The position numbers and the translations under genes were made by a program. Positions 755 to 46,199 of a DNA stretch of 47,347 bases are shown one piece after another. The notes beneath the pieces were generated by a model. That model was not told the origin of the DNA. It worked only from the letters and a program-made list of their open reading frames with translations, and did not search any database. Within the stretch, counting starts at the first letter, position 1. Each line of letters starts with the position of its first letter. Source of the stretch: a virus. The DNA is taken from positions 1 through 47,347 of the IMG/VR virus record IMGVR_UViG_3300023281_000775; one strand, written 5' to 3'.

Positions 755-1094
755 TTATTTCCCCCACGCCGAACGACGTCAATATATTCGCTGAGTATTT
801 GAGCGTGTTATCTGCCAAATCGACACTAAACTCGAGGATAGCTTCGACGCCGTCCACGCGCGCGATAGCCGCCCGCGCTTGAGACTCAAAGATTAACAGA
901 TTTGGGGATCCGGCGAACACTTGGGTAAAGTAGTCAATGCCCTGAGATTGGTTATAAATCATACCCCCGCGACGAACTTCGACCGCGTGTTGGCAGGCTT
1001 CGAGGACCGCCTGTATTCCGGTCGACACCGCAAGACTTCCGCTAGACGTGGCGAATATGTCGTTATTTTCATTTCTCGCTAATATACTAGTCAT
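741..1094 (-). CDS. Baseplate wedge protein (gpW/gp25-like, Mu gp46-like position)
   Basis: 117-aa ORF between the spike gene and baseplate J (the J GTG start lies 14 nt inside its 3' end). Assigned by size and synteny only. Confidence 0.5.
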   Translation of the reverse strand: MTSILARNENNDIFATSSGSLAVSTGIQAVLEACQHAVEVRRGGMIYNQSQGIDYFTQVFAGSPNLLIFESQARAAIARVDGVEAILEFSVDLADNTLKYSANILTSFGVGEISGTV

Positions 1095-1103
1095 AAGTTA
1101 GCC

Positions 1104-2670: not shown

Positions 2671-2980
2671 TTCGAATAGCCTCCAACTCGTCGGCCGTGT
2701 AAAACGACAAAAATTGAGTCACGCCGAAATCTGTATAAAACGGTAAGGTGTCCTCGGTGGTGCAAGTGAAAATAAAATTTCCGTCTTCCAAATAGCCGTA
2801 AGGAATTATCGGCGTCCCGAAAACGGCTCGCGTACTCGATAGGATAGTTACGTTATCGCGTATGATGGTTACGACGGTTAAGTTAGTCGCTGTTTTTAAC
2901 AGCAACCCGTAGCTAATACCGTCCACCACAACGGATAACGATTGATTGGGGACGGCTTGCAAGGGAATATCAAAACTCAT
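2660..2980 (-). CDS. Small tail/baseplate assembly protein, function unknown
   Basis: 106-aa ORF translationally coupled on both sides (overlaps at 2660-2670 and 2977-2980) within the tail module. Confidence 0.55.
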   Translation of the reverse strand: MSFDIPLQAVPNQSLSVVVDGISYGLLLKTATNLTVVTIIRDNVTILSSTRAVFGTPIIPYGYLEDGNFIFTCTTEDTLPFYTDFGVTQFLSFYTADELEAIRSGA

Positions 2981-3579
2981 ATTAGCCCACCAAACGTTCG
3001 GAATAACAGAGAGCCCTCGGCGTTTTGGTTATCGTTTGCCGTTGTCGGTGTTTGTTCCCCTCGGTCAATCGTCGACGCGTCTATCGGGTTTAGTACGTCC
3101 GTCTCTGTTAGTGGCTGTACGCTCGTGTCAAAAAATTGAACTTGTCGGAACTGTACGATAATCGTAACCGTGTCGAAAAACTCGGGGGTTTCCTCGTGCG
3201 GCATATTAGCGATATACATTTGCGTATAGTTATCGGTTTTAGTTTGCACGGTAAATTGTAGCGATAAGTTTTTTGCTTGTCGCATTAACAAATAGGTTTC
3301 CCGGTAATCCTCGGGGAGCATGATAAACGAAACCGACAATTCTATCGGCAGGATAACCCGGTTATCGATAACGGTTTTACCGGTTTCTAACGGATGCACC
3401 GCATAATTAACCGGCTCCGAGACCTGGACAGTAACCGGGCGAGCCCCTGGGAAAGCTTGGACGAGATTTAACTCGTTAAAGGCTCCCGGTAAGTCTATAT
3501 CGGGTATATTATCAATCGCTAAAAATACCGCGACGACATCGGCCGACGCGCTGGGGATTAGCGCGCTAAGAATAGTCAT
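2977..3579 (-). CDS. Tail/baseplate assembly protein following the tape measure (distal-tail or DNA-circulation-like slot)
   Basis: 200-aa ORF whose start overlaps the tape measure stop by 1 nt (3579). Function inferred from position only. Confidence 0.5.
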   Translation of the reverse strand: MTILSALIPSASADVVAVFLAIDNIPDIDLPGAFNELNLVQAFPGARPVTVQVSEPVNYAVHPLETGKTVIDNRVILPIELSVSFIMLPEDYRETYLLMRQAKNLSLQFTVQTKTDNYTQMYIANMPHEETPEFFDTVTIIVQFRQVQFFDTSVQPLTETDVLNPIDASTIDRGEQTPTTANDNQNAEGSLLFRTFGGLI

Positions 3580-5069
3580 TACGCTGCCACTCCGTCGTCA
3601 AAGTTATTAACCGCTTGTTTCATTTGTTCGCCTAACGCGGAGCTAACACCGCTCGCGATGTCTTTCGCGTCGCCGCCTCGAGCGTCTACGTTAACGTTAC
3701 CCACCGATACGCTAGTACTCGTGTTGGCCGTTTTGGTACTGCTCATACTCGTCATAGACTGGCCGCTAAGGGGGTTAGTATCCGCGCCCGTTATTTGCTC
3801 CCTACCAATGGCTAAGGCCTCGTCGGTTTCGCCACCCCCTAACCCTATCAACCCTAGCGCTCCCTCTTTTATGTCTGAAAAGCTGGGTATCTCGGGTATC
3901 GAGTCCTTAACCTTTTTAAAGCCCTCGACGATTTTATCGGGGAGGTGTAGCAGGAAGTCAAAAGCCTTAACAACAAATTCGGAAAACGTCTTAAAACTTT
4001 CTTTTAGCTTATCGACAACCTCGCCGATAATCGGGTACTTTTCCAATATTTTACCGATCATCGAATCTTGGCCGTTTGAAAATGCGACGATATCCTCGTA
4101 AACGAGAGCAAACACCACACCTATAGCGGTTACTACGGCGGCCAATAACAGAAACGGAGCCATAGCGGCGATAGCCGCCGTCGCCGCCGAAAACATGGCG
4201 GGCAAGTAATACAACGTAATGGCGCCCGCGATACCGACAAAAAACCCGATAACGAGGTCTTTATTTTCTACCAATAAGTCGGAGAAATCGTCAACGAGTG
4301 TAAACACTTGGGAAAGGACCGGTAAAACAACGGTACCCAAGGCGCGAAACGTGGCGCTACTTTGTTGCGCGAAGTCCGCCCAAGCGTCGTTAAACTCGGC
4401 CGCGAGTCTCGTGTCTTCTTTGGTGGTGATGCCTAATTCTTTTTGACGCCGTACCAAATCCTCGACCTCTCGGCGCCCTTGTTGTAGTAGTAGTATGGTC
4501 GACTGATCGAGGCCCAGTTTCTGGCCAAACGAAAAGGCCTCGGCCGCCGATAACCGTTCGAAGGCGTCGGCTAGATTCGGCAGCAAATCAAAAGCCGTTT
4601 TAATTTTCCCTTGGGCGTCAAACGCGGAGACACCCAAGCGCGACAACACCTCGATAGCCGGTCCGCCGCCCGTTAATAGAAAGTCGGTAAGCTGGCTAGT
4701 CAGAGACATTATAGAGCTACGGAACCCTTGGGCGCTTCCCCCGGCCCTTATTACCGCCTCACTCCACGCGCCTACCTCTTGCGCGTTTAACCCCAGGACC
4801 TTAGAAAATTTACCGAGTTGGTCGGCTTGCTGCGTAGCGTTCAGAACTCCGGCCGATATCGCCGCGAAGCCTATAACACTCGCGATTGCATTTTTAGCTG
4901 AGGTCGTGAGACCGAGAAACGACTTACCGAGCTTTTCGGCCACTACGTCGGTCGATTCGATTTTACTTTCCAAATCGTCGACCGCTTTCCCGGCCTCGTC
5001 CGCGCCCTTTTTGACGTCGTCGGCGTCGGACTCGAAAAGTATACCGAATGTCTCTAACAAGCTAGTCAC
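3579..5069 (-). CDS. Tail tape measure protein
   Basis: 496 aa directly downstream of the chaperone frameshift pair. It has a helical N half, a long hydrophobic block (FFVGIAGAITLYYLPAMFSAATAAIAAMAPFLLLAAVVTAIGVVFALVY), and a GTG start (5069-5067) overlapping the TAG of the frameshift product. Confidence 0.85.
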   Translation of the reverse strand: MTSLLETFGILFESDADDVKKGADEAGKAVDDLESKIESTDVVAEKLGKSFLGLTTSAKNAIASVIGFAAISAGVLNATQQADQLGKFSKVLGLNAQEVGAWSEAVIRAGGSAQGFRSSIMSLTSQLTDFLLTGGGPAIEVLSRLGVSAFDAQGKIKTAFDLLPNLADAFERLSAAEAFSFGQKLGLDQSTILLLQQGRREVEDLVRRQKELGITTKEDTRLAAEFNDAWADFAQQSSATFRALGTVVLPVLSQVFTLVDDFSDLLVENKDLVIGFFVGIAGAITLYYLPAMFSAATAAIAAMAPFLLLAAVVTAIGVVFALVYEDIVAFSNGQDSMIGKILEKYPIIGEVVDKLKESFKTFSEFVVKAFDFLLHLPDKIVEGFKKVKDSIPEIPSFSDIKEGALGLIGLGGGETDEALAIGREQITGADTNPLSGQSMTSMSSTKTANTSTSVSVGNVNVDARGGDAKDIASGVSSALGEQMKQAVNNFDDGVAA

Positions 5070-5622
5070 TACCGGCCCCTCGAATTATTTTTCGCGTGTT
5101 CAATGGCAAGGTATTCATTCACTCGCGGAACCATTATGGTTTCCCACATAAGAAAAGCATCCTCTAAACTGTAAATAGTTCTTAGCTCGTGTAGGCTTGC
5201 TTTCCCTTCCGCGATGATTGTGCCGAGAAGTCCGTCAATATTTTTAAAATCAATTGCTGCACTTTCTCGCCTAATCCCTCCAAGGCCCTCGAGGCCTTGC
5301 CATTGCCGAAAAAACTCGTGTTGTACTCCAACATTGCCAGTTCAAGTTTTGCCAACACCTGCCAATCCGCGCAGTGATTATCAATAAGCGCTTTAGTTTG
5401 CAAAGTTTGAAGACGACCGTCTAAATCGATAGCGACATACTTCAACATTTTCAACATTATTTTTTCGTTGACTTCGTAATCTCCTAGCTTTGGCATCGCG
5501 GAGACCGGGTAGGTTGCTACGACTTCGCGACCCACTGTCGCCGGTAGTTTTGATATAGTGAACGTGTACTCGGCGCCGTCTACGCCCGTAACCATTGTTT
5601 CTTTGGGTTCGATTAAAGTCAT
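5069..5622 (-). CDS. Tail assembly chaperone, -1 frameshift fusion product (gpGT / gpE+E'-like, about 184 aa)
   Basis: After a -1 slip at 5248-5242 the new frame stays open for 57 codons (NIDGLLGTIIAEGKASLHELRTIYSLEDAFLMWETIMVPRVNEYLAIEHAKNNSRGR). It stops at TAG 5071-5069, exactly filling the otherwise non-coding 112-nt gap before the tape measure gene. Confidence 0.7.
5182..5622 (-). CDS. Tail assembly chaperone (gpG/gpE-like, zero-frame product)
   Basis: 146-aa ORF between the tube and tape measure genes. It contains the slippery heptamer T_TTA_AAA about 60 nt before its stop. Confidence 0.8.
   Translation of the reverse strand: MTLIEPKETMVTGVDGAEYTFTISKLPATVGREVVATYPVSAMPKLGDYEVNEKIMLKMLKYVAIDLDGRLQTLQTKALIDNHCADWQVLAKLELAMLEYNTSFFGNGKASRALEGLGEKVQQLILKILTDFSAQSSRKGKQAYTS
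5242..5248 (-). promoter_or_regulatory. Slippery heptamer T_TTA_AAA for programmed -1 ribosomal frameshifting
   Basis: The minus strand reads caa ttg atT TTA AAA ata in the zero frame, which has the X_XXY_YYZ form. Confidence 0.65.
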
Positions 5623-6065
5623 TAAAAATCAGCCTTATTTTCAAACGCGAACACGTACGGCTTAGACTTAAACCGACCCGCACTCGCGACACTGTTACCG
5701 ACAATTGCGTCGGTTATGACGCCATTCGACAACACGATACCGTTACCGTCGGGATAAATCCCCGTCAAGGTTATAACGTCCCTCGACCCTGTTTTACCTT
5801 TACCGACGCGGTTAGCCTCCGCCAAAATCGCGAGGTTAATGTCGTCGGCTTGCCGGGGTATTAAGTTAATCGTCACGACAATCGCGGTCGCCGTCGACCA
5901 AGCCAATAAATCACCGTTCAACCCCATAGCCGTCGCTTTTATTGTTTGCGAGGGTATGTCGAAGGGGTCCGCGTCGTCGGCGAATTCTGTTAACGTTAAG
6001 CCGTTGGGAAAAGTCACACTCGCAGAGAGTGTAACAATTAGCCCAAAGCCTTCGATATCTGCCAT
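5622..6065 (-). CDS. Tail tube protein
   Basis: 147-aa ORF between the sheath and chaperone genes. It resembles, from memory, DUF3277-type tube proteins that accompany DUF3383-type sheaths. Confidence 0.7.
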
Positions 6066-6076
6066 AGTGTTTCACC

Positions 6077-7579
6077 TTATACGAGAATGTGTGAGCCTTC
6101 GACCTTACGAATAGCGTCGTCTTTAGAATATATCAATGTGTAAACTATCTTAAACTCCCCGGAGGCTGGCGGGTCTTCTACAATTTGCGCGTCTAACCAG
6201 TAGCCGGAGGTTTGCACTTGATAATGGGCGTTAGAGTCTCCGGTTTGTTCCGTTATAAAAATTATTTGCGTTGCGTTTAACGTTTTACCGACGCTTATCG
6301 TTCCGTTTAACAACGCTCGTTCCACGCCTTCGCGAACGACTAATATCGCTTGACCTCGGCCCGAGGCGTTAGCCGGTACGTTAGTCGCCAGTAAAAGATT
6401 CATAAGATTAACGCCTATAAAATCCTTTAACCATTGCTCGTTAGCAAACACGTTCATGTTAACCGGGTCGGTTCCGGATCCCGTCAAAAACCCGCGCTGA
6501 TAAAAACTAAGCGTCACGCCCGCGCTTTGCGTTTGGCCGTAGTAGTTAACTGTCAACCCGTCGTATAGGTTAGCGTTTGGGTTAGTGGTAACCGTGGGAC
6601 TTAACCCGTCTTGTTGAAACATATAATTTTGTGTGGCGCCGCGTTGGGTATAGTCCGTCGCGGCGAGTACCACCATAGGCATCATTTCGGGATACTCGGC
6701 GGGGGACAACGTCGTATCGTTTAACGTCATACCCGTTCCGCCCAAAGCCGACACCGCCGCACTAACCGCCGCCGCGTTGGCCGCGGTTACCGGTGTGTGG
6801 TACTGAAATAAAACGTTGTTGCCGTCGTTCCACGTCGCCGCCTCCAATATCTCGGCCTCGGTTAGCGTGGGGACGAACGCGAAGGATCCAAAATTATTGG
6901 ACGCCTCGGTCGTATCCGTCAAAACTTCGGTCACCGTTTGGGCGTCTACCCCAGGCGATAACCGGGTACTGACGTCGGTCCAACCGAGTAACGCGGCAAG
7001 GTCGGGGGCGCCCCCACCAACGATAGCGATAGCCGTCGCGCCCGTACCCCCACCGTTGAGATTAAAGCGGCTATTCGGGGCGTCATAGGTGACAGTACAG
7101 CCGGTGAATAGCGCGTCGACGTTGGCCGCTTGTATGGCTGTCTGAACATCGGCAGCGACGTCGGCCAAACTAGATGATGTCGACAAGTCTATGCTAGCCA
7201 CTACCTGCTCTATCGCTCCGAGCGTTAACGTAAAAGAGCCGGTGCTAACCGTGTTAAAATCGGTTAACAGTGTGTCGGTCTCGGCCCCGATTATCTGGGG
7301 GGCGGTGTCCACCTCGGCCCAGCGCGCGTAGCTTATTTTTTGAGCCCGCGTAATGTTTTTGGATACGAAAGCGAAGTAAAACAGCGCTCTAAAATACTCC
7401 GGGGAGGTAAAACCGAAATACGAACCCACGTCGGCCGCCGTGTCGAATTCACCAATCGACCCTGTAGGGATTTGGAAATCGGTCGTAAACAACCGGGCGA
7501 TAAGCTCGCGTTGAACGGCCCCCGCGCCTACCGCTAGCCCGCTCGTTATGCCTATATATCTAGTAAATGAAATAGCCAT
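6077..7579 (-). CDS. Contractile tail sheath protein
   Basis: 500-aa ORF immediately upstream of the tube gene. The N-terminus MAISFTRYIGITSGLAVGAGAVQRELIARLFT resembles DUF3383-type sheath proteins (from memory). Confidence 0.8.
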   Translation of the reverse strand: MAISFTRYIGITSGLAVGAGAVQRELIARLFTTDFQIPTGSIGEFDTAADVGSYFGFTSPEYFRALFYFAFVSKNITRAQKISYARWAEVDTAPQIIGAETDTLLTDFNTVSTGSFTLTLGAIEQVVASIDLSTSSSLADVAADVQTAIQAANVDALFTGCTVTYDAPNSRFNLNGGGTGATAIAIVGGGAPDLAALLGWTDVSTRLSPGVDAQTVTEVLTDTTEASNNFGSFAFVPTLTEAEILEAATWNDGNNVLFQYHTPVTAANAAAVSAAVSALGGTGMTLNDTTLSPAEYPEMMPMVVLAATDYTQRGATQNYMFQQDGLSPTVTTNPNANLYDGLTVNYYGQTQSAGVTLSFYQRGFLTGSGTDPVNMNVFANEQWLKDFIGVNLMNLLLATNVPANASGRGQAILVVREGVERALLNGTISVGKTLNATQIIFITEQTGDSNAHYQVQTSGYWLDAQIVEDPPASGEFKIVYTLIYSKDDAIRKVEGSHILV

Positions 7580-7582
7580 ATA

Positions 7583-8122
7583 TTAAACCCTGTTTATGTT
7601 CGCCTCGAACGTGTTAACGACTGGCGTTTTCAGTTGAAAAGTAACTCTATAGCTTATTGTAAAATCAAAACTCGGTATTTGTTCGTGCCGGTCCCTGTCA
7701 TCGATAAAGTATATTTCGCGAATGTCTTGGATCCGTTGGATACCGATGCCCGAGGCGAGTAACGTTTGACGAGACGACCGGGCCTGTAAGATATCCGCCG
7801 CCTTTTCGACGATATCGGACGCGGTTAAGCTGGTGATATCGGTCGGGTCCTGCGTAGCGAGCCCGGCTATCTGGAACGTTGGCGACCGCCAAATCGATTC
7901 AACGGTGTCGAAATCGTCGTCGCCCGGATTATAGGTGTCCGTCACGCCTGGGTAGCCGTACCGGGGCGCTAGTATCTTACTGAGAAATATCGCCCTATTG
8001 GTCGGCACACCTTGTAACGTAGGCTGGTAGGCCTGTTTAACGAGAACGTCGGAGATCCCGAGCGCCGTGTAACCGCTGTTAAGTAATGCGCCTAAGATGA
8101 TAATAACGTCGTTATCATTCAC
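7583..8122 (-). CDS. Neck / tail-terminator-type protein (position-based)
   Basis: 179-aa ORF directly upstream of the sheath gene and coupled to the upstream connector genes. Confidence 0.45.
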   Translation of the reverse strand: MNDNDVIIILGALLNSGYTALGISDVLVKQAYQPTLQGVPTNRAIFLSKILAPRYGYPGVTDTYNPGDDDFDTVESIWRSPTFQIAGLATQDPTDITSLTASDIVEKAADILQARSSRQTLLASGIGIQRIQDIREIYFIDDRDRHEQIPSFDFTISYRVTFQLKTPVVNTFEANINRV

Positions 8123-8490
8123 GGGGTAGGTACCTTAATCGCGAGAACGGCGTCCCAACCGTCGATAGTAAACCAATCGGATTCCTCCATAATCTCGTAA
8201 CGCTCGCCGCCGAATCCGACTTGATCCCCTGGGCGGTCCCTCATAAGATTTTCAAATTCTTGACTTGCCCATATAGCGATATACTCTTTATTAAAATCGA
8301 GGCCCATATCACTATACACTTTGCGGGGTACGGCCTGGACACTGGCCTCGACATCGACCGGGGCCGCGTACGTCGTAACGTCGAGTAATATCTCGTTGGT
8401 CGCGCGACTGTCAAACGCGTAGTATTGAATCGTCGTCGTCGCGATAATGGTCAACGCTAAATCGAGTAAGTTCTCGCCCGGCACTATCAT
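8119..8490 (-). CDS. Head-tail joining / tail completion protein (position-based)
   Basis: 123-aa ORF with 4-nt overlaps on both sides within the connector block. Confidence 0.45.
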   Translation of the reverse strand: MIVPGENLLDLALTIIATTTIQYYAFDSRATNEILLDVTTYAAPVDVEASVQAVPRKVYSDMGLDFNKEYIAIWASQEFENLMRDRPGDQVGFGGERYEIMEESDWFTIDGWDAVLAIKVPTP

Positions 8491-9056
8491 TTTTCGGCCA
8501 CCTCGTGAGTTAACGACGTTAACATAAAGCCGGTGAATACTAACGGCTTAGGGTTAATACCCGAAGAGTCCCCCAGTTCTCCGGCCCCGGTTTTACCTTC
8601 GGCGATAGCGGCGGCCACCTGGCCGACGAACTTACCACCGATAGGCGTACCGGCTAGCGCGTGTTTTCGCAACGCGAGGGTAACCAAGCTAAGCGGCGGT
8701 TCCTGTAATGTCGAAATCGCTTTTTTAACCTGGCCGACGATAATGAGGCCGAGCCTTTCCAAGGCTTCCTTGTTATCCGTTTCGCCTTCGAGAACCTTTT
8801 CATATTCAGCCGTCAAAAACTTAATCCACTTTTCTTTGTTCTCCGCCACGGTTGGCCGGAGAAACGGACGCGGCGGGATACTTCGCCCAGGCGCGCCGAA
8901 TTCTTGGACAGCGGCGACCCCAGCGACCGGTGTGCCGCTGTCGTACCGAGCCGATTCAAACCACCCAATGGTAAGTTTAAGGGCGTCCAGTGTCGCGAGC
9001 TTTATTTTAAGCTCGTCGAGGTCTATGACGCCTTTTGTTCTCACCACTTTAGCCAC
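8487..9056 (-). CDS. Head-tail connector protein (HK97 gp10-like)
   Basis: I place the start at GTG 9056-9054, two nt after the upstream TAG with GGGGGA upstream, instead of the track start 9194, which would overlap the previous gene by 136 nt. The PPRPFLRPTVAENKEKW segment resembles the gp10-like family. Confidence 0.55.
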   Translation of the reverse strand: MAKVVRTKGVIDLDELKIKLATLDALKLTIGWFESARYDSGTPVAGVAAVQEFGAPGRSIPPRPFLRPTVAENKEKWIKFLTAEYEKVLEGETDNKEALERLGLIIVGQVKKAISTLQEPPLSLVTLALRKHALAGTPIGGKFVGQVAAAIAEGKTGAGELGDSSGINPKPLVFTGFMLTSLTHEVAEK

Positions 9057-9058
9057 GG

Positions 9059-9493
9059 CTAAAAGATTCCCCCCACTTTGCGGAACGCCGCACGCTCCGG
9101 TAGCGATCCCGCGTAGATGCCGGCCGCGCCCGAGACTTGTAACAGCGCCAGCAATTGTTGCCCATAAGGCGTAAGACTTAACCACCATTGCCATTGATCC
9201 GTTTGCGGTGGGGGTTGTACCGATACCGATACACTCCCCACCGTGGCGCTCGTGACAAATTTGGGCGTCTTGCCCGCGTTAGCGAGATTTTGAATAGCGA
9301 GTAGGTGAGCCGTCATTAAGTAAATCGACTGTAATAAACAGGCATCACTTAAACATGGGTTAGCCTCGTTCTCGATATAACATTCAGCAATACTAAAGTA
9401 CGCTGTAATAAGCGAGTCGGGGTATGTTATGTCGCTAGCGAATTGCGGGAACTGCACCCTAAAATCCGCGATAACGGGGGTTACCTGGGCCAT
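9059..9493 (-). CDS. Head-tail adaptor (DUF4054-like)
   Basis: 144 aa. The N-terminus VIADFRVQFPQFASDITYPDSLITAYFSIAECYI...LMTAHLLAIQN resembles DUF4054 connector proteins (from memory). Confidence 0.55.
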   Translation of the reverse strand: MAQVTPVIADFRVQFPQFASDITYPDSLITAYFSIAECYIENEANPCLSDACLLQSIYLMTAHLLAIQNLANAGKTPKFVTSATVGSVSVSVQPPPQTDQWQWWLSLTPYGQQLLALLQVSGAAGIYAGSLPERAAFRKVGGIF

Positions 9494-18174: not shown

Positions 18175-18265
18175 TGTACTTCCCTTAATATTCTGTTTGT
18201 AAATTGTTAATATATTATATTGTTACGCGGAACGCTACCCCGAAAGGTAACGCCCCTCGCACTTT

Positions 18266-18550
18266 TTACCCTCTCGCTTTGTCCGCCGCCGTGGCTAATG
18301 CTTTATTAGCTGCGGGAACAGGAAGGGGTATAAGCTCCTCCTCACAAAAGCACGTCTCATGGACCGCGCACTCGTTACAATTCTGAACCATGTATCGAAC
18401 TGTATAGCAAGTAACCACCACGCGTTGACCGGTCGTACCGTCTAAACACTTCAATTCAGTACAGCATTTAACCACTAATCCTATATTATTGACGCAACCG
18501 GCCGCCGTGAAAGGTAGTATTTCTACCGTTGTTCCTACTGGGATAGCCAT
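18266..18550 (-). CDS. Cysteine-rich small protein (10 Cys in 94 aa), function unknown
   Basis: MAIPVGTTVEILPFTAAGCVNNIGLVVKCCTELKCLDGTTGQRVVVTCYTVRYMVQNCNECAVHETCFCEE... It is flanked by 71-nt and 91-nt non-coding gaps, unlike the tightly packed neighbours. Confidence 0.55.
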   Translation of the reverse strand: MAIPVGTTVEILPFTAAGCVNNIGLVVKCCTELKCLDGTTGQRVVVTCYTVRYMVQNCNECAVHETCFCEEELIPLPVPAANKALATAADKARG

Positions 18551-18621: not shown

Positions 18622-21600
18622 TTATCCATCTTGTGTGATATACATTGTCGCGTAAAAAGTAGTTACGGTGCTCGAGCCTGAGTTCCTTGTTATTCGTGGT
18701 CTAATGCTCCAACCTGTTTCGGCCCTTAGAGGAAAAGTTTTTGTAACGGATACTGAATCCGATCCTATGGAGACGAGCGCTTCAACAGCATCGGGTAAAT
18801 CAACAAATCCGCCACCGTCATTTATTTCCCATTTGTACCTGAAATCAACTATTCCGCCTGAGCTAACCGATGTGAAATCAAAAGTTATATGACCCGCAAA
18901 CGGCTCTAATCCTGTATAGATGAAAACTCCGGCAGTGTCATTTATAAGTTTCCACCTTTCCATGGTACTTCCTGCAATAAGGGCTCCGAACTCCATATTT
19001 CGGAATGTGTTATTAGTTATGGTGCCATTTGGTGTGGCATTATTGTTCACATACGACGTGGCTATGTAATGGCTAGACTCGTAGCCACTGTTACTGGACG
19101 CTAATACCCTTGGGTCAGACTGATCAATCCCGTTTGTTGACCACGATCCTGTTTGAGTAGCGCCAAAAGTTCTATTTATTTGAAAACTATTTGTTAACTG
19201 GTTATAAACCGTTGCGCCTCCGTCGTACTGAGTTGACAAATCCGTATCAATTGTCAGTGTGTCACCATTAACAAGAGCCGTTCCCGTGTCTGTCATTGTC
19301 ACAGAATTTGACAGGAAGCTTCCCGTTTCAGTAGTGCCGAAAGGAACGCTTGATACTTCAAAATAACCTACACCCGTTGCGGTGATGATAAAAATCCCGT
19401 TGTATGCTGTATTTGTTACGAAGGTACTGACTACAACTTCTTGATTTACGAATACTGTTGGGCCAACTGTGAAGTTAAAACGCGCTATTCCGCTGCTATC
19501 TGTCACACTTGTTATTGCAGTAGCACTAACCGCGGCGTCGGCAACAACAGTAAATGTTCCCGTTGCGCCGGATGTATCAAATAGCGCGCCGCCGTCACCC
19601 TTAATCGGAGAATTTGTTATGTTAACCGGCGCTCCATCTGTCCAGGCTGGATCCACTCTTATTAAGGTTTCACCGGCTGACAGTGTGCCAAACATACCAG
19701 TAAGACCAACGTCGAACTCAGCCTGGACAGTTGATACATTTATAAACGGCTGGTTAGCTGAAATTAATGGTGATAGTTGCGCAACTCTAAAGCCTGTCAT
19801 TCTCAAAGTAAGACAGTTTGTCAGCGTTAACCCACTACCCCACCCAGCCACAACAGTTTCGACGAAATTTACAAGAGGGCCAATTAACGTATTGTCGAGT
19901 GGTCTTATTGATCCCATTTCCCAGTTTACTAACAAACACTGCGCCAATCTTACTGACGACTGACTGTCGGCTTTAATGTCGAAAAGCGTTCCGCTAACGC
20001 CTTTTACCAGTCTTAGTTCTGTGATGTAGATGTCACAGTCATCGCCGGTAAAAAAAGTACCGGTTCCAAGGAATACGACCTGTTCCCCGTTCCCGTATAT
20101 ATTCAGGTTTGCGCCCAACGTTGCGTCAAACCTTGACGCTGTATTAATAGATTCCTTGAATATAATTAATGTATTTACTGTTATTGAAATAACACCAGCG
20201 GTTGCCAAAGCTTCAAATTCAGATGAATTATGTATCTCTATAATATCTACTGGGTTAACGCTTATACGTTGCCAGACTGCCCCTACTGTAGCCGCCATGT
20301 TAAAATACAAGGCTGATTCGTCTGTATCATCCCTAACTAGAATATCACCACCGGCCCCGGTTACTACTCCGTTTGGATCGCTATTTTCAACGAATATTTT
20401 TGATATACGTGATGCGGTAGTGCTCGCTAGCGATAGTATCTCTGCACCGGTACCCGCGCCAGATTGAATCTGTACTCTATCGTTAAGGCTTTCAATTATA
20501 ACCGTTTCATCTGCTAACACGTCAATGTCGTCAAGTGACTCAAGTACTAACCGGCCACTACCAAGCGTTGTTTGTATTTTTAATTCTGTTGATGAACTTC
20601 TTATTAATGAGTTCGTTGACGCATCCATTGAAATTGTTATATCTGTGCCGTCCCCTAATCCCTCTAGTGTAAATAAATCGTCGGTTGCTGTATCTTCCAG
20701 AACTAAATGGGCCGAAGTACTTCCGGTATAAATTCTAACGGTATTTAACGCCCCGCCAGTTTCGCCAGAAATTCTTGCAACGTTGCTTGACCCGTCCGCG
20801 AATGTTATCACCCCCGCGGTGTCCTGAGTTTGGATGAGAATATCGTCCGACGATAGAATCTCAAGGTCGGTTGTAGTGAGTACTCTTACTAAATCGGTTC
20901 CTTCTAAATACTCAAAAACGCCTTGTAGTACGTTTGAACTATCTTCTACCGCAAAACCCGCTATACCGGTAACACTCGGTGAAAATATAACAGCGGAATT
21001 AGTAGTGGCACCGTCGATAACAGTTAAAGGGGAGTCAGATAATAGCTTTCCTGTCGTTCCGTCCCATAAAGCGACAGCGGTATCGGTACTCGAAGACGGC
21101 CCTGTTACGCCAGAACTCGAACTAATAAGGTCTATCCAATCCGTTGTTGTTGCACCGGTGCCCTCGTGTATAAATATGCTTGAACTTGCACCATTTTTGC
21201 TGAAATAAACGTCACCGGGGGAACCGGTAACATTATTTAATGGAGAACGCGAACCGACAAACATATTTATCGCGGCACCATTCGCACCGCCGGTTTCTAA
21301 ATTTAATAAATTCTGTGTGTCGGGGAGCTGATAACCTACCAACTGAATGTCGGCGACATTATCATTTACGCTTAGAATTAAATCGTTAAATTGCGATCCT
21401 ACTTCAAGGTCACCTAACAACGATAACATTAACGTTAATTTTGTATTATCGTTGAATTGCAAATAAGAAGCTTGCACACCTAAACTGTCTTGCAGTTCGT
21501 AACGTGCTGTATCGTTCGTACCCGGTGCCTCAAGCTCAATTGTAAACACTGATGCAGCAAATACGGCTCTAAAATTCCCCTCACTGCTTAGCAAATTACC

Positions 21601-24600
21601 TGCCGTGCCATTCCAGCTTGCAATAGCATTATTTACGCTTGTATCTGGGCCGTCCAAATCACCAAATATTTTTTTCCACCCTGTATTTGTAACCGCTCCT
21701 GACCGATGCTGATATATTGAAGAGTCCGCACCATTTGACTGGAAATAAAATGAACCTGGATTTCCAGTAACATTACCTTCTGGATTTCTGGTTCCAAGAA
21801 AAACACTCATTGTTGAACCATTTGCACCGCCTGTTTCCCACGCCATCAAAGGCAGCGTGTCTGGCAGCGCACTTCCCGATATTCCTATAACGCCGGTTGC
21901 GCTTTGTGTATCAATATCTATGTTGTCAGATGAATGTAAATCGAGGTCGGTTGTGGTTAATATCCGGACTAAGTCGGTTCCTTCTAAATACTCAAAAACC
22001 CCTTGCAATACGTTTGAACTATCTTCTACCGCAAAACCCGCTATACCCGTAACACTTGGTGAAAATATAACGGCAGAATTAGAGGTAACGCCATCTATGA
22101 CAGTTAAAGGGGAGTCAGCAAGCAACGCGCCGGTGGTGCCGTCCCATAAAGCGACAGCGGTATCGGTACTTGACGAGGGTCCCTGTACCCCGCTAGATGC
22201 ATGTAAAAAGTCTGTCCACCCTGTATTACCACCATCGGACCTTTTCAAGAATAAGTCTGAACTTGTACCACTATCCCTAAAGTACAGCGCTCCGCCATCG
22301 GCTGTTATAAGTCCTTCTGGTGCTCTTGAGCCGACATAGAAATTAATTTGACCTCCATTAGCCCCCGATGTTAATAATTCTAAAAGTGGATTTGTATCGG
22401 GCGAGGAAACATTGATAATACCGAGTTTAGAAGTCGCTCCGCCAATTACAATCGCGATATCTTCGTCGGTTGCGGTTATTAATTCTAGCGGTCCTACTTC
22501 TCCTGATATGACTGATTTATTAGTGTTATCATCATAATCAATCATTAGGCCGGTACCTCCGCCGGCGTCCGACAATGTTATCTGTGCGGTACCCGATGTA
22601 GTTATCGCTTCGATATCAAGTCTTGAATCTGCGGCGCCCTCTATCATAAAAATACCGGCACCGATTTGTAGTGTCTTTGCGGTATTGGTTGGATTAATTA
22701 TAAAAGCGTCGGTTGTATCGTTGTACTGTATTGTTGCAACCGATACATCTGAAAAGTCTACAAATTCTATGGTTGTTGTGCCGGATGATGGAGGTTTTAA
22801 ACCTAGTGTTTTTGTTGTCGTATTGTATGTTAAATTTGAATCGCCGCCAAAAACCCCGCCATTGTTAAACTGAATGCTCTCGTTTGATCCCCCCGGTGAT
22901 GTTATTCCAGGTACAGATGAGGCCGCACTTTGCGCGCCGGTTATTCTAAAACTGGATTGATTGAAAAATTCTGCGTCGCCCGTATCACTTAAATCTGTTG
23001 CATCTTCCGCAATAAGTAGCGCACACCGGTATAGCATATACGGGAATGGCGTTTGCTCCTCAAATTGTTCACTACCTAAAGACTCTAACGCTAAACTTTT
23101 AGACGCAAAAATTTCTTGCCCATAAGTTACCGTTGTCCCCCCGTCCCTACTTCTAAATATACGCTGTATGGTCCAATTTCCGGCGGGAACAGTCTGTAGA
23201 GTTCCAGAACCGTTGTCATACATTGTTGGGCCGATAAGTGTGGTTGGCGAGGGTTCAAATATCGCGCCCGCTCCGGTAGACCTATAGCTTCTAAGAAAAG
23301 TAACAGGCGCGGCGCTAGCGAATGAAACTATATCTGAAAAACCGGGGTCGTTTCTGAAATTGGATCCAAGAAAAAACCCACGCCCACCTAAAACGTCGAT
23401 GTTTAAATTTGTACCATTTGCGCCGTATATATTGCCGTCAACATTTGCGGGCCCTATTATCTGAGACATAAAAGTGTTAAAACTTTCAATACCGTCATAG
23501 GCAACATTAAGTGGAGCTGTAATAATATTTGTAATAGTTCCCGATGTATGCGCGACTAAACCTATTATTATATTTTCTCGTTCGTTTGCCGCTGTTAATG
23601 CACTGGCTAATATTTCAACCATGGACCCGGCGGCGTTATACGCTATAAAAGTTCCGTCGGTTGACGCGATATTAGTCGGCGTGAAACCTGTTACCGCCGC
23701 CCAGGTAACCTCGGATATTACGGGGGATTCAGGGTTATCATAATCGGCTACCTGCCCGCTTCCGGCTGTCCAATCTACGGTAGTTCCGCTTGCCGCGGAT
23801 ATCAAACCCCCTTCCAGTAGCCCAGTAGCCTGGGATCTAATGGCTAGCGCTCTATCGGCCAGGTCAGTCGGCGGCCCGTCGTGGACTTCTAAAACAAGGT
23901 AAGGTGTTCCACCTATCTCCCCCTTAAGGTCTACCGAATCCCCTTTAAAAGAAAAATCTAACTGTTGCCCATTCTCAACTAAAAAAGGAACAAATCCGAA
24001 GTAGTACTCTGTCGCCGTATCCGTGCCTTCCTCGGCAAAGAAAAACATAATCTCTAGCGGCCCACCTAAACTAAGACCTGGGGCGGATCCTTCCCACGCG
24101 GCCTTGCTGGGTAGATATCTAACAGCTAAACCCGTAGCGTTATCCGTTACGCGCATAGTGACATTGGCCATGGGTCCGTTAGTTTTTAGCGTGGCTCTAT
24201 CGACCAATGTTACATCGGGGAGCGTGGCGGCCCCGGTGATAGAAAAATTCAACGGGTTAGCCGTCAATGTCTGGGTATCGTCTAAATTTATGTTGCTGTT
24301 GAACGGATCCCCAAATTTAAAGTAGGCCGGTGTAGAAGCTCCGCCAGCGTCGGAAAAATCTGAATTGACAGAAAACGCCATTGAGTCTTTTAACTTATCG
24401 ACAATAACTAGGTCAGCGACGCCTTCGGATAGTTGCAAGGCCTCACCGACATTAATCGATCCGCTAGGTACGTTTACGGTGTCGTCGAAAGTCACCTCTC
24501 CCGTGGATTGATCTACGTTTATTCCTTGAGATGTAAATTCACTACCATCGGATACCGCTACCGTACCCGCCTGTAAGCTTGTTGCGGATGATCCACTCTC

Positions 24601-24888
24601 CCCTTGAATCAGACTAGTGACGTCAACCCAAGTACTATTCTGTCTTTGCTGGTAAATCGCCGTATCGGGGTCCGTCCCCGTTAGCACAAGTTTAATAATT
24701 AAAAATTCATTTGCGTCGAGGGTCGCCAGGTCCGCCGGGTTAGCACCAAAATAAACGTCCCTGGCCGATTCCGCCGCCGTTTGATCAACCCCGGTATAAA
24801 TCGCCGGTTGGTTGTCCGCCGTTTGCGTAAATAGTTGAAAACCCGCACCGCCCCCCACTTGTAACCCGTACCCCGCTCGTGCTGCCAT
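18622..24888 (-). CDS. Giant repeat-modular fibre/adhesin-like protein (2088 aa), function unknown
   Basis: Uninterrupted 6267-nt ORF with an ATG start 5 nt after the upstream stop. Four internal modules share terminal motifs, and fibre-like motifs are present (SIQFNNGGVFGGDSNLTYN, GPSSSTDTAVALWDGTTG). Confidence 0.85.
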   Translation of the reverse strand: MAARAGYGLQVGGGAGFQLFTQTADNQPAIYTGVDQTAAESARDVYFGANPADLATLDANEFLIIKLVLTGTDPDTAIYQQRQNSTWVDVTSLIQGESGSSATSLQAGTVAVSDGSEFTSQGINVDQSTGEVTFDDTVNVPSGSINVGEALQLSEGVADLVIVDKLKDSMAFSVNSDFSDAGGASTPAYFKFGDPFNSNINLDDTQTLTANPLNFSITGAATLPDVTLVDRATLKTNGPMANVTMRVTDNATGLAVRYLPSKAAWEGSAPGLSLGGPLEIMFFFAEEGTDTATEYYFGFVPFLVENGQQLDFSFKGDSVDLKGEIGGTPYLVLEVHDGPPTDLADRALAIRSQATGLLEGGLISAASGTTVDWTAGSGQVADYDNPESPVISEVTWAAVTGFTPTNIASTDGTFIAYNAAGSMVEILASALTAANERENIIIGLVAHTSGTITNIITAPLNVAYDGIESFNTFMSQIIGPANVDGNIYGANGTNLNIDVLGGRGFFLGSNFRNDPGFSDIVSFASAAPVTFLRSYRSTGAGAIFEPSPTTLIGPTMYDNGSGTLQTVPAGNWTIQRIFRSRDGGTTVTYGQEIFASKSLALESLGSEQFEEQTPFPYMLYRCALLIAEDATDLSDTGDAEFFNQSSFRITGAQSAASSVPGITSPGGSNESIQFNNGGVFGGDSNLTYNTTTKTLGLKPPSSGTTTIEFVDFSDVSVATIQYNDTTDAFIINPTNTAKTLQIGAGIFMIEGAADSRLDIEAITTSGTAQITLSDAGGGTGLMIDYDDNTNKSVISGEVGPLELITATDEDIAIVIGGATSKLGIINVSSPDTNPLLELLTSGANGGQINFYVGSRAPEGLITADGGALYFRDSGTSSDLFLKRSDGGNTGWTDFLHASSGVQGPSSSTDTAVALWDGTTGALLADSPLTVIDGVTSNSAVIFSPSVTGIAGFAVEDSSNVLQGVFEYLEGTDLVRILTTTDLDLHSSDNIDIDTQSATGVIGISGSALPDTLPLMAWETGGANGSTMSVFLGTRNPEGNVTGNPGSFYFQSNGADSSIYQHRSGAVTNTGWKKIFGDLDGPDTSVNNAIASWNGTAGNLLSSEGNFRAVFAASVFTIELEAPGTNDTARYELQDSLGVQASYLQFNDNTKLTLMLSLLGDLEVGSQFNDLILSVNDNVADIQLVGYQLPDTQNLLNLETGGANGAAINMFVGSRSPLNNVTGSPGDVYFSKNGASSSIFIHEGTGATTTDWIDLISSSSGVTGPSSSTDTAVALWDGTTGKLLSDSPLTVIDGATTNSAVIFSPSVTGIAGFAVEDSSNVLQGVFEYLEGTDLVRVLTTTDLEILSSDDILIQTQDTAGVITFADGSSNVARISGETGGALNTVRIYTGSTSAHLVLEDTATDDLFTLEGLGDGTDITISMDASTNSLIRSSSTELKIQTTLGSGRLVLESLDDIDVLADETVIIESLNDRVQIQSGAGTGAEILSLASTTASRISKIFVENSDPNGVVTGAGGDILVRDDTDESALYFNMAATVGAVWQRISVNPVDIIEIHNSSEFEALATAGVISITVNTLIIFKESINTASRFDATLGANLNIYGNGEQVVFLGTGTFFTGDDCDIYITELRLVKGVSGTLFDIKADSQSSVRLAQCLLVNWEMGSIRPLDNTLIGPLVNFVETVVAGWGSGLTLTNCLTLRMTGFRVAQLSPLISANQPFINVSTVQAEFDVGLTGMFGTLSAGETLIRVDPAWTDGAPVNITNSPIKGDGGALFDTSGATGTFTVVADAAVSATAITSVTDSSGIARFNFTVGPTVFVNQEVVVSTFVTNTAYNGIFIITATGVGYFEVSSVPFGTTETGSFLSNSVTMTDTGTALVNGDTLTIDTDLSTQYDGGATVYNQLTNSFQINRTFGATQTGSWSTNGIDQSDPRVLASSNSGYESSHYIATSYVNNNATPNGTITNNTFRNMEFGALIAGSTMERWKLINDTAGVFIYTGLEPFAGHITFDFTSVSSGGIVDFRYKWEINDGGGFVDLPDAVEALVSIGSDSVSVTKTFPLRAETGWSIRPRITRNSGSSTVTTFYATMYITQDG
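20839..21102 (-). repeat. Intragenic repeat copy 2 (about 264 bp; aa 1263-1350 of the giant ORF)
   Basis: Lies exactly 1080 nt (360 codons) from copy 1. Shared runs include ggttccttctaaatactcaaaaac and gtttgaactatcttctaccgcaaaacccgctatacc. Confidence 0.9.
21919..22182 (-). repeat. Intragenic repeat copy 1 (about 264 bp; aa 903-990 of the giant ORF)
   Basis: GPSSSTDTAVALWDGTTGALLADSPLTVIDGVTSNSAVIFSPSVTGIAGFAVEDSSNVLQGVFEYLEGTDLVRILTTTDL; 79/88 aa identical to copy 2, with long identical nucleotide runs. Confidence 0.9.
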
Positions 24889-24892
24889 AGTC

Positions 24893-25231
24893 TTAGCCCT
24901 CCCAACTGTTAACAGTTATCTGGTAGGTGTACCCGGCATTTAACCCGGCGATAGTGAAAAAGTATTTTTGCGCGCTGGAAAGCTCCGGAAGCCACGCCCG
25001 CGCGTCGGTGGATAGGTCTATCGTCTCGGAAAAGTCTTCGCGTTGGTCCGCCCCGATTTTCTGGACTTGCCCGGTTATCACGCCAACCGCCGCGACGCCC
25101 GAAACCCCGCCAGCGTTAAAAATAGTGATTGTTATCTCGTGCCAACGGCGTTCCGCGTTGGCCCCCAGGTTGACTTCCGCCTCGCCTTGGGCTTCGGTAA
25201 AAGGTCCGAATTCTTGGAATGTAACCGTCAT
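24893..25231 (-). CDS. Hypothetical protein co-transcribed with the giant ORF
   Basis: 112-aa ORF with GGGGGGAG 6 nt upstream of its ATG; its stop is 4 nt before the giant ORF start. Confidence 0.6.
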   Translation of the reverse strand: MTVTFQEFGPFTEAQGEAEVNLGANAERRWHEITITIFNAGGVSGVAAVGVITGQVQKIGADQREDFSETIDLSTDARAWLPELSSAQKYFFTIAGLNAGYTYQITVNSWEG

Positions 25232-25295: not shown

Positions 25296-25331
25296 GGAAT
25301 AAGGAAAGCCCGAGGCCTAAAAGGCCCCAGG
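25296..25331 (-). terminator. Candidate intrinsic terminator/attenuator between the 163-aa gene and the giant-ORF unit
   Basis: The minus strand reads CCUGGGGCC-UUUUA-GGCCUCGGG (9-bp stem with two G-U pairs) followed by CUUUCCUUAUUCC. Confidence 0.4.
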
Positions 25332-25366: not shown

Positions 25367-25858
25367 CTATATTATATTATCGCCCGCAGCGATATCGCAA
25401 CACGCGACAAGCCGGGTATTGAGTTGGTGGCGGAGTCCGATTCGAGGCGCGAGAGCGGCGTAATACTCGTGTAGCCGGCCGGCGTAGCTGCGTCGTAACT
25501 CTCGGGGCTTTAATTCGTGCATCCGCCGGAGCTCCTCGCATAGGTGTATGTCGATAGCCGGTTTGCCGATATCGACGCCTATCGTTTCACGTAATATCCT
25601 AACCGCGTTACTTACTGAGGTTAAAATACAGCAATCAAAATACAAAAATCTAAAATCCTCTGGTAAGTAGTCCGCTAACGACCTGGCCCACAACGGCAGA
25701 TAATAACAATCAAAAGCGTCCCGTATCGTTACCTCGTCCATTTTCATAGATTGGGGGAAGCAAGTATCTGGAACCCCGAACCGTGTCTCGCGCTCGTTAA
25801 TTTTTTGTATGCGTTTTTGTTCGAAGTGGTTTATATGCAACATGATTTCGTTAAGCAT
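25367..25858 (-). CDS. Hypothetical protein (weak resemblance to a peptidoglycan-binding helical domain)
   Basis: 163-aa ORF. The segment LYFDCCILTSVSNAVRILRETIGVDIGKPAIDIHLCEEL only loosely recalls PG_binding_3-type domains, and no catalytic motif was seen. Confidence 0.5.
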   Translation of the reverse strand: MLNEIMLHINHFEQKRIQKINERETRFGVPDTCFPQSMKMDEVTIRDAFDCYYLPLWARSLADYLPEDFRFLYFDCCILTSVSNAVRILRETIGVDIGKPAIDIHLCEELRRMHELKPRELRRSYAGRLHEYYAALAPRIGLRHQLNTRLVACCDIAAGDNII

Positions 25859-44898: not shown

Positions 44899-44901
44899 AA
44901 T

Positions 44902-46194: not shown

Positions 46195-46199
46195 AATGT

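Follow-up and report, generated by a model that had tools for sequence, protein, structure and literature searches.

A single gene takes up about 13% of the viral genome IMGVR_UViG_3300023281_000775 (47,347 nucleotides [nt], analysed at full length and called the window here), and we consider its product of 2088 amino acids (aa) likely to be an accessory host-adhesion fibre of the virion. The original prediction had placed this uninterrupted open reading frame (ORF) away from the tail module, with the lysis genes and terS as its neighbours, and had taken its product for an addition to a conventional fibre. The ORF listing and the Pfam and PHROG annotation of the neighbouring genes bear this out, and supply the strand that the prediction left unstated: the ORF opens with ATG on the minus strand. 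The phage is contractile-tailed and carries a normal tail-fibre module, the giant gene lies outside that module, and a conventional 430-aa tail fibre with a Peptidase_S74 domain (aa 316-380) is also encoded, so the giant protein is indeed additional; Pfam finds no C-terminal Peptidase_S74 in it. The giant gene is a coding sequence under purifying selection and not a chance ORF, since the ratio of nonsynonymous to synonymous divergence (dN/dS) between its two most similar internal modules is 0.19 (dS 1.33, dN 0.25). Its start codon is backed by an identical MAARAGYGL start in a syntenic relative, locus L038, and is preceded by a GGGAGGG Shine-Dalgarno sequence that overlaps the 3′ end of the upstream 112-aa ORF. 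The N-terminus, from its sequence, has neither a signal peptide nor a transmembrane segment.

The link to the particle comes from phage PhiPsa374. Residues 22-303 of its 603-aa protein gp055 align with aa 31-331 of the giant protein (BLASTP E 2e-24, 29% identity over ~300 aa), and a hidden Markov model (HMM) of the conserved N-terminal domain that we call D0 matches gp055 at E 5e-15, the similarity including the AARD-x-YF...NP...L / W-x-D core. In purified PhiPsa374 virions, gp055 (63 kDa) was detected by liquid chromatography-tandem mass spectrometry with 44 unique peptides and 74% coverage, at about twice the abundance of the portal protein (PMC9796965, Table 1). The gp055 gene has small ORFs on either side and lies directly upstream of the terminase, a long way from the tail module, in the order gp055, gp056, terL (gp057). 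The predicted receptor-binding tail fibres of that phage are gp081 and gp083, which adjoin the DUF2612 protein gp080 (PMC9796965), and the window and PhiPsa374 thus share a two-fibre layout, in which the tail module supplies a DUF2612 protein and a fibre, and a D0 protein is encoded beside the terminase. Escape mutations by which PhiPsa374 overcomes changes in host lipopolysaccharide map to gp080 and gp081. Together with phiPsa267 gp060, an Otagovirus "tail fibre protein", gp055 resembles the giant protein in having D0 and the next domain, D1, in being encoded upstream of the terminase and in belonging to a myovirus. It differs in being only 603 aa long, in lacking D2, the repeat modules and the C-terminal block described below, and in having no partner of the 112-aa family, an unrelated 87-aa ORF preceding it instead. 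The published PhiPsa374 table enters no gp055 homolog for related Pseudomonas phages (PMC9796965).

Homology searches of Pfam, PHROG, NCBIfam and the Protein Data Bank (PDB) put the giant protein in no described fibre family. The Pfam, PHROG and NCBIfam scans gave no usable match for it or for the 112-aa and 94-aa ORFs that flank it, the sole Pfam match of the giant protein at E <= 0.1 being a sub-threshold HIT-like one. Searches of the PDB, by sequence with the whole protein and by profile with D0, the entry motif of the repeat modules and the terminal regions (900 aa at the N-terminus, 889 aa at the C-terminus), returned nothing significant, neither flanking ORF had a PDB sequence match, and megablast of the gene region against GenBank phages gave no match; every domain of the protein is outside current family databases. 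Among 5.8 billion proteins we found 27 relatives of 1200-2600 aa, all of them unnamed and most on 40-80-kb contigs. The family as a whole consists of unannotated mosaic proteins of 650-2600 aa on phage-sized contigs, and BLAST against it splits the giant protein into blocks common to different subsets of relatives. The minimal version (P0034, 686 aa) joins D0 straight to the C-terminal block; collagen-like Gly-X-Y runs follow D0 in P0026 (PF01391) and in a 714-aa protein of locus L039; and single members carry Laminin_G_3 (P0022) or PF02018 (P0017), which we take to be a carbohydrate-binding module. Of the original description, a giant host-interaction protein of no recognizable family with fibre, capsid-fibre and depolymerase options, the unannotated, fibre-like, modular character stands, but the depolymerase option finds no support.

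The N-terminal region of about 690 aa, which had been read as one unique block, is instead resolved by BLAST against the family into three separable domains common to different relatives (D0, D1 and D2; Table 1), and tblastn against GenBank phages matched these N-terminal blocks alone. D0 is 55-81% identical among proteins that are otherwise unrelated (BLAST). Its family is small: at 50% identity, 1.84 billion proteins yield 345 clusters, and the domain nearly always stands at the very beginning of the protein. No Pfam domain was found in any of ten mid-sized D0 members checked, and in a search for prophages that might point to hosts, D0 turned up in just two short contigs of metagenome-assembled genomes among 185,579 species-representative genomes. 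Two AlphaFold2 monomer runs with family alignments were made, on aa 1-900 and aa 1200-2088, and the first of these models D0 at a predicted local distance difference test (pLDDT) score of ~90. D0 is a putative virion anchor and/or trimer-nucleating domain. Apparent internal tandem copies of D0 in P0038, P0068 and P0084 were judged spurious, these being coiled-coil or cadherin-repeat proteins; the multi-copy matches to the D0 profile, probably spurious and partial, fell in long coiled-coil proteins and in a cadherin-repeat protein of 3281 aa that also carries the secretion-system sorting domain Por_Secre_tail.

D1, modelled at pLDDT ~90 over aa 190-345, is common to PhiPsa374 gp055, phiPsa267 gp060, Vibrio phage 1.284.A gp15 and the family members P0020 (70%) and P0023. 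D2 is common to Flavobacterium phage 11b gp46, a 1775-aa "tail fiber" of Stenotrophomonas phage DLP6 and "tailspike" proteins of Streptomyces phages, and occurs also in P0014, P0016, P0025, P0028 and P0029. Foldseek comparison of the N-terminal model (aa 1-900) with the PDB gave no convincing match. In BFVD its best match is the phiPsa267 "tail fiber protein" (E 2.5e-25), and all matches there are phage proteins, many uncharacterised, the few names being tail fiber, minor tail and tail protein.

Beyond D2 the protein becomes repetitive. Four modules sharing an end motif, three of them with a related entry motif, had been read from the translation, and both kinds of motif are where the original prediction had them: the end motifs at aa 853, 1032, 1212 and 1501, and the entry motifs GPSSSTDTAVALWDGTTG at aa 903 and 1263 and GPDTSVNNAIASWNGTAG at aa 1080. 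BLAST of segments against one another gives a period of ~180 aa (aa 801-891 versus 974-1071) and up to 92% identity at an offset of 360 aa (aa 783-1022 versus 1143-1380), and the DNA of positions 20840-21111 is 81% identical to that of 21920-22191. In a MAFFT alignment the homology spans the whole module length, the fourth module being worth about 1.5 modules. Each module starts with a GP-x-S-T...(W/F)-D-G-T-T-G entry motif, which recurs in 15 family proteins, and ends in a conserved domain of ~70 aa, an HMM of which detects four copies in the giant protein; of 37 proteins scanned, 19 have between one and six. The fourth copy marks the start of the C-terminal block that is shared among relatives. 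Neither the entry motif nor the end domain has a Pfam counterpart, and the 180-aa module that makes up the shaft has not been described before. The monomer model of this region is poor (pLDDT 30-55), as would be expected for a monomer model of an intertwined fibre.

One lead on the module was followed and demoted. Positions 13-51 of the end-domain profile align with single NHL-type blades (P-x-G...G-x-Y-V-x-D-x-G) of the designed "Pizza" proteins, but each blade contributes only ~12 bits, and the E-value of 1e-12 arises from six or seven identical repeats. The natural protein PknD is not a significant match to the profile (E 3.2), and Pfam gives no NHL match. NHL-repeat beta-propellers such as the PknD sensor and "Pizza" are made of tandem blades, five or six of ~40 aa, whereas the giant protein has one blade-like motif in each 180-aa module.

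The C-terminal end had been described as beta-helix-like and then a beta-sandwich, and the AlphaFold2 model agrees: aa ~1549-2088 are all-beta, with pLDDT mostly above 85. Relatives carry its blocks (aa 1483-1956, 1740-2020 and 2000-2088) in different combinations, and the consensus of the small beta-domains, ITSVTDxSGxARFNF...YNGT..TATGAG.FE, recurs in P0004, P0008, P0021, P0022, P0026 and P0034. Against the PDB, Foldseek relates the C-terminal model to TNF/C1q-like jelly-rolls with probability 1.00 and template-modelling (TM) scores, normalized to the target, of 0.55-0.64 over ~153-171 columns; the better matches have root-mean-square deviations (rmsd) of 4.3-5.6 Å and sequence identities of 8-17%. 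They include ExsFA, BxpB, BclA, C1QL3, the C1q domain of Caprin-2, TNF ligands (4-1BBL), the tip of Bdellovibrio Bd2734 (8okw) and the spike knob of phi812. The Foldseek output came without query coordinates, and the match was placed on the last ~150 aa from the aligned length and the strand count, that region being modelled as ~10 strands in a sandwich at pLDDT ~75-87. The C-terminal tip is thus likely, as far as a predicted model goes, to be a TNF/C1q-like jelly-roll and the putative ligand-binding end. Pfam gives no C1q or TNF match and the PDB profile search with the C-terminal 889 aa was empty, so at the level of sequence no homology to TNF/C1q was found. One relative, P0011 (L009:3302-8476), has an insertion of ~90 aa at residues ~1580-1680, in the region that aligns with the predicted tip; variation of this kind in loops or inserts would be expected at a ligand-binding end.

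The locus is hypervariable in related genomes, as would be expected for a host-interaction protein, and L038 shows this at close range. It is a syntenic relative whose terL (86% identical), portal (84%), 112-aa ORF (89%), lysis proteins (75-84%) and terS (64%) all correspond to those of the window. DNA homology runs from window position 28995 down to 24866, that is, 23 nt into the giant gene, and stops there; it resumes at 18266-18208 (90%), directly past the stop codon that ends the 94-aa ORF, and from there extends across terS and terL into the start of the portal gene. Because homology breaks 23 nt into the giant gene and returns only after the 94-aa ORF, the giant gene from about codon 9 together with the 94-aa ORF is an exchanged two-gene cassette. 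In L038 the block is replaced by a 1893-aa protein and ORFs of 265 and 120 aa. The first nine residues of the 1893-aa protein are unchanged; it has seven module-end domains and a D0 that has diverged, and lacks D1, D2 and the C-terminal block. The recorded gene call at L038:10344-16025 starts at 11166 (1619 aa), but the open frame begins at 10344 (MAARAGYGL), 4 nt after the 112-aa homolog, and so yields the full 1893 aa with D0 included; truncated calls of this sort could hide D0 in database searches.

Fibre genes with an M..AGYG-type start are found in L038, L039, L040 and L043, and what follows the start varies: L043 has a version of ~1067 aa with 3-4 modules, L039 the 714-aa protein with a collagen-like run followed by a 1064-aa protein, and L040 a 651-aa protein placed before the 112-aa homolog. 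At the far boundary, the 59-nt element at 18208-18266 consists of a hairpin, GGGGCGTTACC-TTTC-GGGGTAGCGTTCC (predicted -23 kcal/mol), and then AACAATATAATATATTA. This element, which was not found in more distant relatives, may combine a terminator with a terS promoter behind it. The GC content of third codon positions (GC3) follows the same division, at 0.58-0.67 in core structural genes and 0.64 in the 112-aa ORF, against 0.39 in the giant gene and 0.45 in the 94-aa ORF; within the giant gene it falls from 0.51 (aa 1-100) to 0.35-0.39 distally. A conserved N-terminus with an exchanged distal part, here represented by the mosaic, the GC3 gradient and the replacement in L038, is the pattern typical of receptor-binding proteins.

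The two small neighbours have to be considered separately. A three-gene unit of the 112-aa ORF, the giant gene and the 94-aa ORF had been proposed; the giant gene and the 94-aa ORF are exchanged together, but the 112-aa ORF belongs to the conserved backbone. As a family-wide arrangement the unit was rejected, jackhmmer and HMM searches having found no relatives of the 112-, 94-, 79- or 163-aa ORFs beside family members outside the lineage. Within the lineage, homologs of the 112-aa ORF directly precede a large ORF in L038, L039, L043, L045 and the cultured Vibrio phage 1.123.O (host Enterovibrio norvegicus), and D0 was shown in that ORF in all but L045. The 112-aa ORF is probably translationally coupled to the giant gene, and its product is a candidate lineage-specific adaptor, chaperone or assembly factor. 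Phage 1.123.O has two tandem paralogs of this family followed by a 949-aa D0-bearing protein; the paralogs, NVP1123O_63 and _62 at L046:3589-4214, offer a convenient system for testing the small partner. A role for the 112-aa ORF as a head decoration protein was considered and dropped, the match to PDB 9in6_c ("SHP of VP1") having an E-value of 0.86 and an hhalign probability of 6.5%.

For the 94-aa ORF no homolog was found. Because it changes together with the distal fibre, its product may be a cognate partner of that fibre, acting in assembly or at the tip. Small Cys-rich ORFs, unrelated to this one, are also met downstream of the family genes of L004, L006, L007 and L018, and giant fibres may in general be accompanied by an accessory protein rich in Cys. 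These ORFs form one family of ~107-120 aa (L004:15389-15751, L006:6264-6590, L007:18053-18376) and another of ~88 aa (L007:17741-18010, L018:8297-8563); membership of the 94-aa ORF in either was rejected for want of detectable similarity.

Tail fibres are generally encoded in or at the end of the tail/baseplate module; the giant gene of the window is not, and its relatives occupy a range of positions. The gene follows that of the major capsid protein in podovirus-like contigs (L004, L008, L009) and precedes the tail tube gene in a siphovirus-like one (L006), and in L017 and L018 it is upstream of terS/terL, the position that holds in L038, L039 and L043 as well. Of the family members examined, L005 alone has the giant gene in a tail-module position: there it closes a siphovirus-type module, beyond the tape measure gene. 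Morphotypes here were assigned from Pfam markers (SU10_portal, Phage_stabilise, Phage_tube_2, tape measure, sheath). Apart from the giant gene, the window has a weak terL match to L016, a 659-aa protein in common with L015 and almost nothing else in common with the family loci; therefore, the giant-fibre family moves between unrelated backbones.

Put together, these features suggest how such a fibre might work. Its first ~10 residues and D0 would mount it on the particle and/or start trimerisation, possibly helped by the co-translated 112-aa protein, and D1 and D2 would form its proximal body. The four to five modules of ~180 aa would make a long segmented shaft whose length is set by the number of modules (3-4 or 7 in relatives), and at the distal end the beta-helix-like stretch and the small beta-domains would lead to a jelly-roll tip that contacts the ligand. 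The fibre is probably a homotrimer, for which the collagen-like runs of relatives and the predicted TNF/C1q-type tip, a fold of trimeric families, give indirect support. By analogy the ligand is most likely a glycan, because the Bdellovibrio tips of Bd2439 and Bd2734 (PMC10769870) bind glycans and some family members carry lectin-type domains. The fibre would work alongside the 430-aa S74 tail fibre in binding host-surface structures. Recombination between related phages, using the first fibre codons and the hairpin past the 94-aa ORF as boundaries, would swap the cassette and with it the specificity of adsorption.

Several known systems show parts of this design. The mosaic adhesive trimer (MAT) fibres of Bdellovibrio bacteriovorus are likewise large and chimeric, with a long beta-rich stalk, in some cases a beta-helix, and at the C-terminus a tip that can be exchanged; in Bd2439 and Bd2734 this tip is TNF-like (PMC10769870). 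The top PDB match of our N-terminal model, though a weak one, is the MAT fibre Bd2133. However, MAT fibres (Bd2734, Bd2439, Bd2133) are bacterial surface proteins without sequence similarity to the giant protein and without D0, D1, D2 or 180-aa modules, and many end in an S74 chaperone domain, which the giant protein lacks. BclA of the Bacillus exosporium nap combines an N-terminal anchor, a collagen-like stalk and a C1q-like tip, a plan echoed by family members with collagen-like runs. The giant protein itself has only vestigial Gly-X-Y and a stalk of 180-aa modules, and at 8-17% identity its homology to BclA, ExsFA/BxpB and the C1q/TNF trimers is not established. Among phages, two fibre sets are familiar from T5 (the L-shaped fibre pb1), lambda (Stf) and T4 (long versus short fibres). 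Side fibres of these types are comparable as a second, long, non-essential-looking fibre with a conserved N-terminus, a variable distal part and exchange, and they often come with a small downstream assembly factor, which resembles the gene arrangement here. Unlike the giant gene, those fibre genes lie in or beside the tail module and belong to described families, none with D0 or the repeat module; Pfam, PHROG and PDB sequence searches found no similarity of the giant protein to them.

A number of considerations weigh against our preferred reading. All functional evidence for the 2088-aa protein itself is indirect, the detection in virions being that of the homolog gp055, and in PhiPsa374 it is gp081 and gp083, not gp055, that are the predicted receptor-binding fibres. 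Fibres are invisible in cryo-electron microscopy averages of PhiPsa374, which therefore do not give the place of gp055 on the particle. The fibre architecture is deduced around a shaft that is poorly modelled as a monomer, and the tip match is at the level of fold only, made on a predicted model, and names no ligand. Finally, D0 occurs in myo-, sipho- and podovirus-like contexts that have no other detectable gene in common with the window, which is awkward for specific docking; an open alternative is that D0 does no more than nucleate folding or trimerisation.

The site of attachment is where an accessory fibre allows a real choice, and the indications are mixed: L005 and the D2 homologs favour the tail or baseplate, whereas the frequent capsid/packaging-gene neighbourhood and the spread of D0 across tail types favour the neck or capsid. 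A head or neck fibre held by D0, perhaps with the 112-aa protein, would be a variant of the favoured reading that differs in attachment site and in role, offering a larger capture radius or a tether to flagella, particles or polymer matrices; we regard it as possible, although on balance the odds are against it. In L009, L004, L008, L006 and, as gp15, in 1.284.A, the gene is found directly behind the major capsid gene or else where head genes give way to tail genes, but podovirus-like tail genes also follow the capsid gene, which makes that position ambiguous; it adjoins packaging or head genes in the window, L017, L018 and Otagovirus, but sits at the end of the siphovirus-type tail module in L005, and D2 homologs such as Flavobacterium phage 11b gp46 are at distal tail positions. 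The occurrence of D0 across morphotypes fits a shared target, such as an HK97-fold capsid or the portal/neck, the S74 fibre by the DUF2612 gene presumably takes the baseplate fibre sites, and the best tip-fold matches, BclA and ExsFA, belong to the hair-like nap of Bacillus spores. On the other hand, Pfam and PHROG gave the giant protein and the 112-aa ORF no match to head decoration or head fibre families (gpD/SHP, Hoc, phi29 gp8.5), the comparison of the 112-aa family with 9in6 failed in hhalign, and no capsid fibres have been reported for PhiPsa374, though flexible ones would average out. A bolder version makes D0 a portable anchor, independent of tail type, for the capsid, portal or neck, with a shaft of three-chain "knots" of NHL-like blades and the 112-aa protein as adaptor, in which case unrelated myo-, sipho- and podovirus-like phages may exchange a giant head/neck fibre. 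We find it doubtful as a whole, and keep it in consideration because of the spread of D0 across morphotypes, the capsid/packaging neighbourhood and the failed monomer models of the shaft.

Two further readings depart from the adhesion fibre altogether. If the protein were a tailspike-like depolymerase, its beta-helix would degrade capsule, exopolysaccharide or O-antigen, and the fibre would mainly deliver the enzyme. The top Foldseek E-value of the C-terminal model (1.4e-4) does belong to the catalytic domain of CBA120 TSP4, with Det7, Sf6 and K2-2 also appearing, but these tailspike matches have TM scores of 0.08-0.18, rmsd values of 20-30 Å and probabilities of 0.3-0.8. The regular short beta-strands of aa ~1546-1765 are modelled with high confidence, yet the beta-helix-like stretch is just ~215 aa long, there is no Pfam match to Beta_helix, pectate lyase, glycoside hydrolase or esterase at E <= 0.1, and the PDB profile searches were empty; although the gene next to gp055 in PhiPsa374 encodes a virion SGNH hydrolase, we think an enzymatic role unlikely. 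Still further from expectation, and very improbable in our view, is a late-expressed protein that is not part of the virion at all, being released at lysis or displayed on the infected cell as a free adhesin, a biofilm- or matrix-binding protein or an agent of superinfection exclusion. The gene's place, with the lysis cassette on one side and terS on the other and away from the head and tail modules, would suit such a protein, as would the want of detectable similarity to annotated structural families and the occurrence of D0 in unrelated backbones. Opposed to it are the abundance of gp055 in purified virions, an N-terminus without export signal or membrane segment, the embedding of the gene in a structural operon in other phages, and an architecture that resembles known virion and surface fibres. 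The accessory host-adhesion fibre accordingly remains the reading that we prefer.

The surrounding genome is otherwise conventional, with a Peptidase_M15_3 endolysin and membrane proteins upstream of the giant gene and terS, terL, portal, head, sheath, tape measure and hub genes downstream (Pfam, PHROG), the immediate order being giant gene, 94-aa ORF, 79-aa ORF, terS and terL. The tail module occupies 741-9194 and 44233-47272, with wedge and hub genes near 741-2670 and the DUF2612 and fibre genes within 44233-47272; the far end of the late operon, 44902-46856 on the minus strand, encodes the DUF2612 protein (46200-46856) and then the 430-aa fibre. The minus-strand late operon appears to run off the start of the window and to resume at its end (1-740 and 46853-47347), which suggests a complete and circularly permuted genome. 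The closest terL sequences are those of Vibrio phages (55-59% identity). In the two closest GenBank terL matches (~55%), vB_VcM_SY and PS34B.2, no large gene lies upstream of terS, and these phages are too distant to date the acquisition of the giant gene. A 10-bp GC-rich terminator-like hairpin is found at 25309-25331 (minus strand) between the 163-aa and 112-aa ORFs, and a sigma-70-like site matching at 10 of 12 positions at 25371-25400; with the 3′ hairpin, these could define a separate transcription unit of the 112-aa ORF, the fibre gene and the 94-aa ORF. In a scan for promoters and terminators the site counts equalled shuffled expectation, the two hairpins being individually strong.

Table 1. 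Features of the giant-gene locus, in window coordinates
Feature	Position	Strand	Evidence
Giant fibre-like gene, 2088 aa + stop	18622..24888	-	ORF listing, large homologs, dN/dS, GC3
5′ cassette boundary, first ~8 codons (MAARAGYG)	24866..24888	-	L038 homology ends at 24866; junction alignment
D0, conserved N-terminal alpha/beta domain, aa ~13-100	24589..24852	-	Similarity, model, HMM
D1, beta-rich, aa ~101-345	23854..24588	-	Similarity, model
D2, conserved, aa ~346-690	22819..23853	-	Similarity; model confidence moderate
Shaft, four to five ~180-aa repeat modules, aa 691-1545	20254..22818	-	Self-similarity, DNA repeat
Module-end domain copy 1, aa 828-897	22198..22407	-	HMM E 1e-35
Module-end domain copy 2, aa 1007-1076	21661..21870	-	HMM E 5e-36
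Module-end domain copy 3, aa 1187-1257	21118..21330	-	HMM E 5e-35
Module-end domain copy 4, more diverged, aa 1476-1545	20254..20463	-	HMM E 2e-32
Beta-helix-like stretch, aa ~1546-1765	19594..20253	-	AlphaFold2 pLDDT >90, many short regular strands
Small beta-domains, most widely conserved part of the C-terminal block, aa ~1766-1935	19084..19593	-	Consensus, pLDDT ~90
Likely TNF/C1q-like jelly-roll tip, aa ~1936-2088	18625..19083	-	Foldseek; placement from aligned length and strand count
94-aa Cys-rich ORF (9 Cys), second cassette gene	18266..18550	-	Within the block non-homologous to L038; own ribosome-binding site
3′ cassette boundary, hairpin then AT-rich with TATAAT	18208..18266	-	90% to L038, adjacent coding DNA unrelated
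112-aa ORF, lineage-specific upstream partner	24893..25231	-	4-nt gap to giant gene, GC3, homologs

A second, exchangeable phage fibre is a familiar theme. What sets this case apart is the location of the gene beside the terminase, a D0 shared across tail types, an undescribed 180-aa module and domains that lie outside the databases. This leaves an annotation gap, current pipelines giving the giant gene no annotation at all; the four building blocks (D0, D1/D2, the shaft module with its end domain, and the C-terminal block) could become profile models, with which hundreds of dark phage proteins might be recognised as candidate fibres. For the engineer, the mapped cassette boundaries are a natural site for fibre swapping, and the docking partner of D0 is directly testable, for example in 1.123.O or PhiPsa374, both of which are in culture. 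For the phages themselves, a locus that is kept yet constantly remodelled, at a cost of 13% of the genome, is likely to be a major determinant of adsorption for marine (Vibrio-type) phages.

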